Shown: piece by piece, positions 6,871-7,726 of the stretch | Layout of the letters: each line of letters opens with the position of its first letter | How positions within the stretch are numbered: position 1 is the stretch's first letter | Assembly: GCA_016840425.1 (NCBI GenBank) | Contig: JAEOSI010000102.1 | Coordinates: 1 to 7,726, forward strand | Reading direction: 5' to 3' | From: Candidatus Wukongarchaeum yapensis | GTDB taxonomy: Archaea; Asgardarchaeota; Wukongarchaeia; Wukongarchaeales; Wukongarchaeaceae | Length of the DNA: 7,726 nt | Notes under the pieces: generated by a model | Database searches by the model: none | Told to the model about the DNA's origin: nothing | What the model saw: only the letters and a program-made list of their open reading frames with translations | Made by a program: the position numbers and the translations under genes

Positions 6871-7422
6871 TTAGATTTCTTCGAGTTTTTTAAGGGCTTT
6901 TAATATTTCAGAACGTTCATCATCAGCCCCTTCGACTCCAAACTCTGGAAAAGTAGGCGATTGGGGAACAGGTGTTTCAGGCTCCGAAGTAGGAGGTGTA
7001 GATGGTGTGGCAGGTTTTGTATCCATAGAGGGGGGAGGAACAGTGGGGATAGACGGCGAAGTTGTAGACGTGGAAACAGAAGGAGTTGTCGATACAGCGG
7101 GGGAAGGTTTCACTTCGGGCGCAGGAACGGTAGGGAGAGGAGCAGGTACTTCAGGCACAACACCTACCTCTGAGGACGGTTCTTTTACCATAGTTTCTCG
7201 TGGCGCTAAGGTAACAGGGGGATAGATTGATGGCTTTTTTTCTGATTTTTCAAAAGTGATCATCCTTTGTTCTAACTCGGAGAGTTTTGACTCTAACCTG
7301 CTAAGCCTCTGATGTATCTCTTTAAAAGCTCCTTTACTAGCTTCGGAGAAAATTCTTAGGGTTTCAAGCATTTTCTGGGCCAGTCTAGAATCTATTTCCG
7401 TTTTTTCTTTTTTCTTTCCCAT
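6871..7422 (-). CDS. Hypothetical protein (183 aa): N-terminal helix and coiled coil, Pro/Ser/Thr-rich linker, acidic patch and C-terminal amphipathic helix
   Basis: ATG with GGTGG SD 9 nt upstream (7432-7436). Regular heptad F33-I36-L40-L43-L47-L50-M54-F57. 28 Pro in residues 64-159. Ends EGADDERSEILKALKKLEEI. No family recognised. Confidence 0.85.
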   Translation of the reverse strand: MGKKKEKTEIDSRLAQKMLETLRIFSEASKGAFKEIHQRLSRLESKLSELEQRMITFEKSEKKPSIYPPVTLAPRETMVKEPSSEVGVVPEVPAPLPTVPAPEVKPSPAVSTTPSVSTSTTSPSIPTVPPPSMDTKPATPSTPPTSEPETPVPQSPTFPEFGVEGADDERSEILKALKKLEEI

Positions 7423-7487
7423 TTAAATACGCCACCAAAAACTGAAAAATAAGAAGAAAGTGAATTGTGAAAACAAATTCTAATTAT

Positions 7488-7512
7488 TATGTACCTACTA
7501 TCCTAGTACATA
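7488..7512. promoter_or_regulatory. Inverted repeat TATGTAC-N11-GTACATA, either an operator or a terminator hairpin
   Basis: 7-bp perfect arms, extendable to 9 bp with one bulge, in the 117-nt gap between two co-directional genes. An adjacent T7 tract lies on the minus strand at 7512-7518. Confidence 0.4.
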
Positions 7513-7539
7513 AAAAAATTTTGGTTTCATTCTATGATG

Positions 7540-7726
7540 TTAACTAATGCGTTTAATTTTTGGCTTAATGTTAACAGGATAAATTTTCACATTAGTGCCC
7601 TTTTGCCCCTTGTAACGAAGGTTAAAATCGGATATTTCACAATTTGTAGCCTCCAATTTACGCGGTATGTGAAGAGGCGTGGAACAGGCAAAAAAACGAA
7701 GGGCAGGATCAAAAGGAAGCCAGCCG
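7540..7726 (-). CDS. Partial CDS (3' end, 61 aa) of a probable transglutaminase-like (Cys-His-Asp) domain protein
   Basis: Frame open from the window edge (7725) to TAA at 7542-7540: GWLPFDPALRFFACSTPLHIPRKLEATNCEISDFNLRYKGQKGTNVKIYPVNIKPKIKRIS. GWxxxDP matches the motif carrying the triad Asp of transglutaminase-like domains. The rest of the gene is outside the window. Confidence 0.58.
   Translation of the reverse strand, partial: GWLPFDPALRFFACSTPLHIPRKLEATNCEISDFNLRYKGQKGTNVKIYPVNIKPKIKRIS

Follow-up and report, generated by a model that had tools for sequence, protein, structure and literature searches.

A Heimdall-group archaeal protein with a Roadblock-like terminal helix, possibly a RomR-like scaffold

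The window analyzed here is a 7,726-nucleotide stretch of Candidatus Wukongarchaeum yapensis DNA (contig JAEOSI010000102.1), whose minus strand carries at 6871 to 7422 (stop codon included) an open reading frame (ORF) that is translated into a protein of 183 amino acids, P0001. We found that P0001 is the short form of an uncharacterized protein family of Heimdall-group Asgard archaea and that its C-terminal helix resembles the tail of a Roadblock protein encoded in the same genome. The interpretation that we tentatively prefer is that P0001 is a RomR-like oligomeric scaffold presenting a Roadblock-type end helix on a polyproline tether. [quoted passage not shown]

Ten Roadblock genes were found in the genome, and the product of one of them, P0090 (G000:C125:10588-11058; 156 amino acids), ends in SERAELEAALKELEKF. 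P0090 matches Robl_LC7 and MAPKK1_Int and is an MglB/LAMTOR-like Roadblock protein. When the 6238 ORF C termini of the genome were compared with the family tail, anchored at the C terminus, P0090 gave the top nonself match (score, 32.3; next score, 23.3; mean, -13.3; standard deviation, 8.4), with a z value of about 5.4, and in the reverse comparison from the P0090 tail, P0001 came first (26.8 versus 24.0). The pattern AL[KR]x[LI][ED]x followed by a hydrophobic residue occurred seven times in a million residues and was C-terminal only in P0001 and P0090. Besides, the orthologues of P0090 in four other genomes, by which three further archaeal families are added to that of the window, have a variable and sometimes Pro-rich extension followed by ALKELE-x-F-COOH. 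The Roadblock tail is distributed over the same clades as the family tail: with archaeal families denoted by f numbers, the Roadblock tail was found in 29 of 31 f8 genomes, 10 of 12 f10 genomes, and all f11 (22/22) and f13 (12/12) genomes, with almost nothing elsewhere, and the family tail was found in f8 (31/31), f1 (2/2), f7 (1/1), f10 (7/12), f11 (6/22), and f13 (2/12), with 2 weak matches among about 320 genomes of the remaining families (f14 onward). In the genus of the window, the P0090 gene lies directly upstream of an Arf/Ras-family GTPase gene (C125:9902-10492) and beside a second Roadblock gene (C125:9388-9759).

The tail itself is a C-terminal amphipathic helix (residues 166 to 183; 6874 to 6927, minus strand) ending in ALKKLEEI-COOH. 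The terminal amphipathic helix proposed in the initial annotation was confirmed by AlphaFold2 (AF2), which modeled residues 166 to 182 as helical with a predicted local distance difference test score (pLDDT) of about 90; in the long form of the family, the corresponding helix spans residues 275 to 287. Ala-176, Leu-177, and Lys-178 were invariant across the family, whose tail ends in ALK-x-L-E-x-[I/L]-COOH. All 95 distinct tails (95/95) stop exactly 3 residues past AL[KRE]x[LI], despite arms ranging from roughly 40 to 180 residues, and this fixed distance to the chain end points to a tail that would be read by chain-end recognition. All tails also fit [DE]-x-hydrophobic-COOH, a class III PDZ-type ending pattern. 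Pfam, NCBIfam, and ESM Atlas, as well as a PDB sequence search with the tail, gave nothing above threshold, and a search for longer (fused) proteins carrying the family tail found none.

Ahead of the tail, P0001 is divided into a head and an arm. An N-terminal long α-helix (residues 3 to 61; 7240 to 7416, minus strand), for which the AF2 pLDDT exceeded 90 at residues 11 to 50, is presumed to be a coiled-coil or oligomerization head. It is followed by a disordered arm rich in Pro, Thr, Ser, and Val (residues 62 to 165; 6928 to 7239, minus strand), modeled without secondary structure at a pLDDT of about 45 to 55; Pro makes up 28.9% of linker residues 64 to 160, in accordance with the 29% noted initially. 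We compared 18 distinct genus-level sequences and computed, for each segment, the ratio of nonsynonymous to synonymous substitution rates (dN/dS) against a congener (G002). The overall dN/dS was 0.48. The head (residues 1 to 63; dN/dS, 0.02) and the tail (residues 160 to 183; dN/dS, 0.16) were nearly unvarying in the genus, and the linker (residues 64 to 160) had a dN/dS of 1.24, the arm evolving neutrally; across the family, the arm is hypervariable in both length and sequence.

Searches with a single sequence or with four sequences returned genus members only, and an 82%-identical homologue was labeled Candidatus Hodarchaeota. Scanning 400 genomes of the phylum in six frames recovered full-length relatives of similar size with 25 to 32% identity and also proteins of about 280 to 300 amino acids that matched through their last 100 residues. 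These groups were joined by hhalign at 90 to 96% probability via the head or the tail, and head residues 20 to 63 aligned with the head of the f10 form. A profile built from eleven members retrieved 74 clusters, all annotated as hypothetical and without a Pfam domain, so that at profile level the protein is no orphan; clusters named by source were Heimdallarchaeota or Heimdallarchaeaceae, except for one Thorarchaeota and two unspecific labels. The tail profile found a single gene in each genome with a match, apart from two exceptions. In the long form, the head consists of two conserved helices, modeled by AF2 as a helical hairpin, and the linker is hypervariable in both length and sequence; this form also has the conserved island ERDVSPISKEVSG-x-IP-x-PPK and the invariant ending SAELFGEAVSGDKAELLKALKKLEDL. 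P0001 had no domain match in Pfam or NCBIfam, the Snf7 core and REC included, which agrees with the initial statement that it lacks an ESCRT-III core. Searches of Pfam, NCBIfam, and folds with the head gave generic coiled-coil matches and nothing specific, and a fold search with the long-form model gave tied generic coiled-coil matches (Z, 6.2 to 6.6).

[quoted passage not shown] P0001 repeats this logic, and for this reason we read it as a scaffold presenting a Roadblock-type end helix. It shares with RomR of Myxococcus xanthus, the polarity scaffold of the MglA/MglB/MglC module, the order of folded head, long disordered Pro-rich linker, and C-terminal helix resembling a Roadblock Ct-helix, and like MglB, it has a short helix at the extreme C terminus behind a disordered linker, an extension that P0090 has as well. 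The scaffold would oligomerize and hold the end helix out on the flexible polyproline tether, and this helix, rather than the MIM2-like or YPx3L strings of the arm (see below), would be the functional ligand. It would dock where the Roadblock tail docks, namely, on a small GTPase, as the MglB Ct-helix does on MglA, or alternatively on a Roadblock dimer, as RomR's C-terminal helix does on MglC. The polyproline island S-[IV]-P-x-x-P-P-P-S might serve as a second, weaker ligand. P0001 would, accordingly to this scheme, work like RomR without homology to RomR. The architecture, the conservation pattern, the family, and the shared tail with its distribution are observed; a common receptor for both tails, and its identity, we infer.

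Several points weigh against this reading. The similarity of the tails amounts to about 8 of 13 to 16 positions in a short amphipathic helix, and the margin of the reverse comparison over the next C terminus is small. Roadblock tails are more acidic and end in Phe, whereas family tails are Lys-rich and end in Ile or Leu, and the two need not have one receptor. The co-distribution of the tails covers about one clade and is therefore close to a single evolutionary event. The adjacency of GTPase and Roadblock genes was seen in this genus only and not in other lineages, and the family gene never adjoins GTPase or Roadblock genes, lying 12 to 40 kb from them on shared contigs. P0001 lacks a REC domain and so is not a RomR homologue; unlike RomR, it is archaeal, its head is a coiled-coil helix or hairpin without detectable homology, and its tail is Lys-rich and amphipathic rather than Glu-rich. 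Unlike MglB, it has no Roadblock domain but the tail alone, and this tail has a net charge of about zero, whereas MglB Ct-helices are rich in Asp and Glu.

The Roadblock genes and their surroundings provided some further observations. The family gene and the tailed Roadblock gene share a contig at a conserved distance of about 33 to 40 kb in f8 (G017, G021, G035, and G043) and about 12 kb in f11 (G067 to G069, G078, and G079), a loose linkage that is probably synteny and not an operon. In f8 (L099:551-1378, minus strand; L100:2018-2854, plus strand), the tailed Roadblock gene is followed by genes for a conserved protein of 276 to 278 amino acids and a coiled-coil protein of about 175 amino acids, neither of which had a Pfam match. 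Loci L011 and L015 (G124, G121, and G123; f16), from an archaeal family without the scaffold, encode a Roadblock-like protein of 239 residues that has a Pro-rich linker and, internally, the helix ...DEKGAIFEALRALGLEDM...; the Rab-like GTPase encoded at locus L010 has a linker rich in Pro and, at its C terminus, a helical domain.

An explanation that dispenses with any external ligand is that P0001 is a structural, self-associating coiled coil, in which the tail packs against the head (for autoinhibition or as part of a three-helix bundle) or against further copies, with the arm serving only as a spacer. Head and tail are the two parts co-conserved in every member, and both are amphipathic helices. 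We nevertheless consider this improbable, since the same tail occurs on a Roadblock protein without such a head, the exact C terminus is fixed as described above, which points to end recognition and not to a generic coiled coil, and the tail is unchanged whether the head has one helix, as in the short form, or two, as in the long form.

The proposal of the initial annotation fares somewhat worse, and we regard it as quite doubtful. It suggests that P0001 is an IST1-like adaptor outside ESCRT-III, which recruits the MIT domain of Vps4 through motifs resembling MIT-interacting motif 2 (MIM2) together with a helix resembling MIM1 and is multimerized by its coiled coil. The genome, which is 92% complete, has an MIT domain at the beginning of contig C143, in a Vps4 gene that the contig edge truncates, and two Snf7-family (ESCRT-III) genes lie next to it, on a contig other than that of P0001. 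The genome also encodes a UEV protein (on a different contig, C109), a profilin, and several actins. The general layout fits as well: the tails of IST1 and ESCRT-III proteins (MIM2/MIM3 plus MIM1) likewise consist of a Pro-rich segment and a terminal amphipathic helix with L-x3-L-x2-L spacing.

The motifs on which the proposal was built are all present at the positions that it gave, on the minus strand: IYPPVTL at residues 66 to 72, containing the YPx3L match YPPVTL (residues 67 to 72; 7207 to 7224); VPEVP (residues 89 to 93; 7144 to 7158); LPTVP (residues 96 to 100; 7123 to 7137); and IPTVP (residues 125 to 129; 7036 to 7050), which lies within the polyproline island SIPTVPPPS (residues 124 to 132; 7027 to 7053). 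The segment spanning VPEVP and LPTVP (residues 85 to 102) reads VPEVPAPLPTVP. Exact [LV]Px[VL]P strings occurred twice in the linker; the number expected was 0.155 when residues were shuffled (P = 0.012) and 0.32 when shuffling preserved dipeptides (P = 0.032). When Ile was admitted as well, there were 3 matches versus 0.2 (P = 0.0015) and 0.5 (P = 0.0066), respectively, all P values being uncorrected for a motif picked after the sequence was read. The excess over chance is modest and marginal. Up to 3 such matches also occur in other Pro-rich stretches of this genome, in line with the initial caveat that short Pro motifs arise easily. For instance, a 362-residue ORF on contig C118 (G000; stop-to-stop frame starting near 2824, reverse strand), whose product is beta-rich in its N-terminal part and has two zinc ribbons at the C terminus, contains several repeats of EQPKKIERPLPTT(I/T)PEPVLPT(I/T)PEV that themselves hold φPxφP-like strings (φ, hydrophobic), indicating that such strings arise readily in the Pro-rich proteins of this genome.

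The full MIM2 consensus is φPxφPxxPφP, ten residues that include four prolines (Kojima 2016, quoted from PMC5840170). Sulfolobus CdvB1/2, which keep only the first part of it, bind the MIT domain marginally (PMC5840170), and a published regular expression for the core demands a charged x (PMC8970359). The claim of two exact consensus matches holds for the 5-residue core φPxφP, which VPEVP (residue 89), LPTVP (residue 96), and IPTVP (residue 125) all have, but the charged x is present in VPEVP only, LPTVP failing the regular expression because its x is Thr, and the 10-residue consensus in the quoted form is fitted by none of the three cores of P0001, nor by any sequence of the T and B clades. 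Counting Ala as hydrophobic makes only 7 of the 114 family sequences fit the quoted consensus, at a different place. In some long-form members, (M/L)PEAPxxP(A/P)P occurs where the arm begins, again a fit to the quoted 10-residue form if Ala is taken as hydrophobic, albeit a loose one; it resembles VPEVPAP here, and its (M/L)PEAP part stands at a place comparable to that of VPEVP. Given this resemblance, the arm may hold a labile, low-affinity Pro ligand. It has also been reported that Asgard MIM2 motifs do not fully fit the eukaryotic consensus (PMC7240154), a point in favor of the proposal.

Alignment of orthologues spoke against the two exact cores, which are less conserved than the rest of the linker, the outcome that the initial annotation itself had named as refuting. 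VPEVP and LPTVP are restricted to the species cluster of the window; sister species carry KPEVL, TPEIP, or QPEIS at the former and SPTVP or SPTVS at the latter, so that the anchors are lost in all of them. Only 5 of 10 positions in the two cores are invariant, versus 58% across the linker, the changes falling on the hydrophobic anchors, and residues 86 to 101, which include both cores, are the fastest-evolving segment (dN/dS, 1.7), the cores evolving neutrally. Across the family, φPxφP was present in 6 of 15 representatives and absent from 9. YPPVTL is invariant in the genus, within a constrained segment (residues 64 to 85; dN/dS, 0.17), but is absent from the nearest other clade, which has GLVKAVETS at the aligned positions. 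A search of the genome for Bro1 (PF03097) gave no match, and the control likewise matched nothing anywhere; orthologues of Bro1/Alix are not identifiable in Asgard archaea (PMC11188069, Makarova et al.), which leaves the YPx3L string without a known reader.

The near match IPTVP and the terminal helix, which the initial annotation had ranked lowest, were the only elements that turned out to be conserved more widely than the genus. SIPTVPPPS is invariant in all 18 genus sequences and aligns with (V/I)PPVPLPPS in the nearest clade (B clade), so that one φPxφP island (IPTVP/VPPVP) is kept between two clades; it degenerates to IP-x-PP elsewhere, with related islands in the long form (SG-x-IP-x-PPK) and in f7 (IPPPPS). 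An EB1-type SxIP reading of this island was rejected, as the register of the Ser is not kept. We infer from these alignments that VPEVP, LPTVP, and the YPx3L string are probably incidental, the exact cores being by-products of linker composition.

The terminal helix is also at odds with MIM1 in its charges. The MIM1 consensus is reportedly (D/E)xxLxxRLxxL(K/R), going back, it is said, to Obita and to Stuchell-Brereton in 2007. The family tail has the MIM1 hydrophobic spacing L-x3-L-x2-L (Ile-173, Leu-177, and Leu-180) at the extreme C terminus, and this part of the likeness to IST1 stands, but a MIM1 regular expression matched none of the family tails, all 95 of which have Ala and Glu/Asp at the two basic positions. 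Basic MIM1 residues form salt bridges with MIT (principle stated in PMC5840170). The ESCRT-III tails of five Heimdall-group relatives, such as DLEAEIQKLRRKEED, are acidic and then basic, with Lys or Arg at position 11, the second basic MIM1 position, a charge order opposite to that of the family tail; the 202-residue ESCRT-III protein of this genome has the same acidic-then-basic pattern. A hidden Markov model of the family tail, run against all ORFs of the genome, did not retrieve ESCRT-III tails. In the proposal's favor, Heimdall-group ESCRT-III tails likewise pair LP(T/S)xP with a terminal helix. Both ESCRT-III paralogues at loci L077 to L086 and L002/L003 end in LP(T/S/D)x(P) and an acidic-then-basic helix, e.g., DLEAEIQKLRRKEED or DLEAELASLKKKLSDDK, and the ESCRT-III pair of this genome has no φPxφP core.

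Furthermore, no tie of the family gene to ESCRT genes was seen in the neighborhoods of any clade, and in two genomes with long contigs it lies more than 100 kb from the ESCRT-III genes. The family occurs in part of the Heimdall group only, whereas Vps4 is universal in Asgard archaea. P0001 thus differs from IST1 and ESCRT-III proteins in having no ESCRT-III core, no basic MIM1 residues, no ESCRT gene linkage, no fit to the quoted 10-residue MIM2 consensus, and no conservation of its cores. The ESCRT-specific reading loses its main evidence, while the adaptor-like architecture of coiled-coil head, disordered Pro-rich arm, and terminal helix and the importance of that helix are upheld.

Another ESCRT-related comparison is with CdvA of Crenarchaeota, which consists of a coiled coil, a disordered linker, and a C-terminal E3B peptide binding CdvB (PMC5840170). 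P0001 is similar in combining a presumably oligomerizing helical part with a tethered short candidate ligand at the C terminus, but it has no PRC barrel, and its ligand would be a helix and not the β-strand of an E3B peptide. A CdvA match in Pfam was seen in one relative only and far below threshold. CdvA is not among the Asgard ESCRT components in PMC11188069, and no search aimed at CdvA was made here.

A further reading, which we judge very unlikely, makes P0001 an actin regulator of the Ena/VASP or WASP type, in which the coiled coil oligomerizes, the arm recruits profilin, and the tail binds actin in a WH2- or Lifeact-like manner. Profilin and actins are encoded in the genome; some Heimdall and Thor profilins bind polyproline, although weakly, at millimolar affinities (PMC8410842). 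Both sides of the comparison would have a coiled coil for oligomerization, an arm rich in Pro, and a short amphipathic helix whose core is KK-x-E, the tail (I-L-K-A-L-K-K-L-E-E-I) resembling Lifeact (V-A-D-L-I-K-K-F-E-S-I, a sequence confirmed from the literature) in hydrophobic spacing and in this core. That resemblance was drawn by eye only, however, and the WH2 spacing (a helix, about 5 residues, and LKKV/T) is not present; the domain order differs as well, and P0001 has neither EVH1 nor FAB. Regarding the arm, [IV]PxP is enriched across the family (41 observed versus 14.7 expected) and the PPP island is conserved, but its Pro runs are short, with fewer PPP strings than in shuffled sequences (17 versus 31). 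The family gene is unlinked to actin or profilin genes, and the tail shared with a Roadblock protein would be left unexplained.

Hardly tenable, finally, is an adaptor linked to ESCRT-I or ubiquitin, in which P(T/S)xP would bind a UEV domain or the tail would be a helix of the ubiquitin-interacting motif (UIM) type (hydrophobic-x-x-Ala): a UEV-domain protein is encoded in the genome, long-form loci have a UBC/UEV-fold gene at a distance of 1.35 kb, PTVP, PSIP, and PSTP are present, and Ala-176 is invariant, but P[TS]AP is not enriched (5 versus 2.7; P = 0.14), PTVP is unconserved in the B clade, the UIM consensus carries a conserved Ser at a position where every tail has Leu, and the proximity to a UEV gene belongs to the synteny of one archaeal family only, the UEV gene of this genome lying on another contig.

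The neighborhoods of the family gene are clade specific. In this genus they comprise a transglutaminase-like gene and ArcS, in the B clade Rad50/Mre11, and in the long form a GT4/AglH-like gene. In the window, the 3' end of the transglutaminase-like gene lies upstream of the P0001 gene (7540 to 7726, minus strand), its ORF running off the window; the full gene (Pfam Transglut_core; E value, 2.5e-18) was found on an overlapping contig, C16, and in G002. C16 (G000:C16:1-394) overlaps window positions 7333 to 7726 at 97.2% identity over 394 nucleotides, which indicates strain heterogeneity or a split assembly, and carries the remainder of the upstream gene. In Heimdallarchaeaceae long-form loci, the conserved order is ABCE1, a UBC/UEV-fold gene, a gene for a small membrane protein, a GT4 (AglH-like) glycosyltransferase gene, and the family gene, with the UBC/UEV-fold gene on the strand opposite to the family gene; in L047, it encodes 218 amino acids (7399-8052, plus strand), with equivalents in L048 and L049.

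Two other sets of proteins came up in the searches. Proteins of about 180 amino acids in G009 and G008, encoded about 4 kb from a Vps4/ESCRT-III cluster, were rejected as family members, since the match was weak, the tail was different, and the tail profile missed them. A second protein of this genome (G000:C215:830-1684, plus strand), which has a transmembrane helix at its N terminus as well as a coiled coil and an acidic linker, contains a similar but nonterminal helix, ...SEMLKALKRLKGFMETE; it resembles weak matches in Odin-like and other genomes ending in ...NEMLKELKRLKKLMTGMT, and its neighbors are metabolic genes.

Asgard archaea have many small GTPases, Roadblock and longin proteins, ESCRT components, and actin regulators, and the adaptors connecting them are almost all uncharted. 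Strings resembling MIM2, PTAP, and YPxL come up easily in the Pro-rich linkers of these organisms, and most fail on alignment of orthologues. If P0001 is indeed a RomR-like scaffold with a Roadblock-type end helix, a more speculative and, in our judgment, rather unlikely extension by analogy is that it belongs to a Heimdall-group analogue of the RomR-MglB-MglA circuit, in which a dedicated oligomeric scaffold would use its copy of the Roadblock helix to compete for an Arf/Ras-like GTPase (or a Roadblock platform) or to deliver it. If true, GTPase regulation in the archaea most closely related to eukaryotes would have a further layer specific to this clade, marked by ALK-x-L-E-x-hydrophobic-COOH. 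The tail motif common to the scaffold and the Roadblock protein offers a concrete hypothesis that can be tested with peptides, namely, which protein reads the tail.

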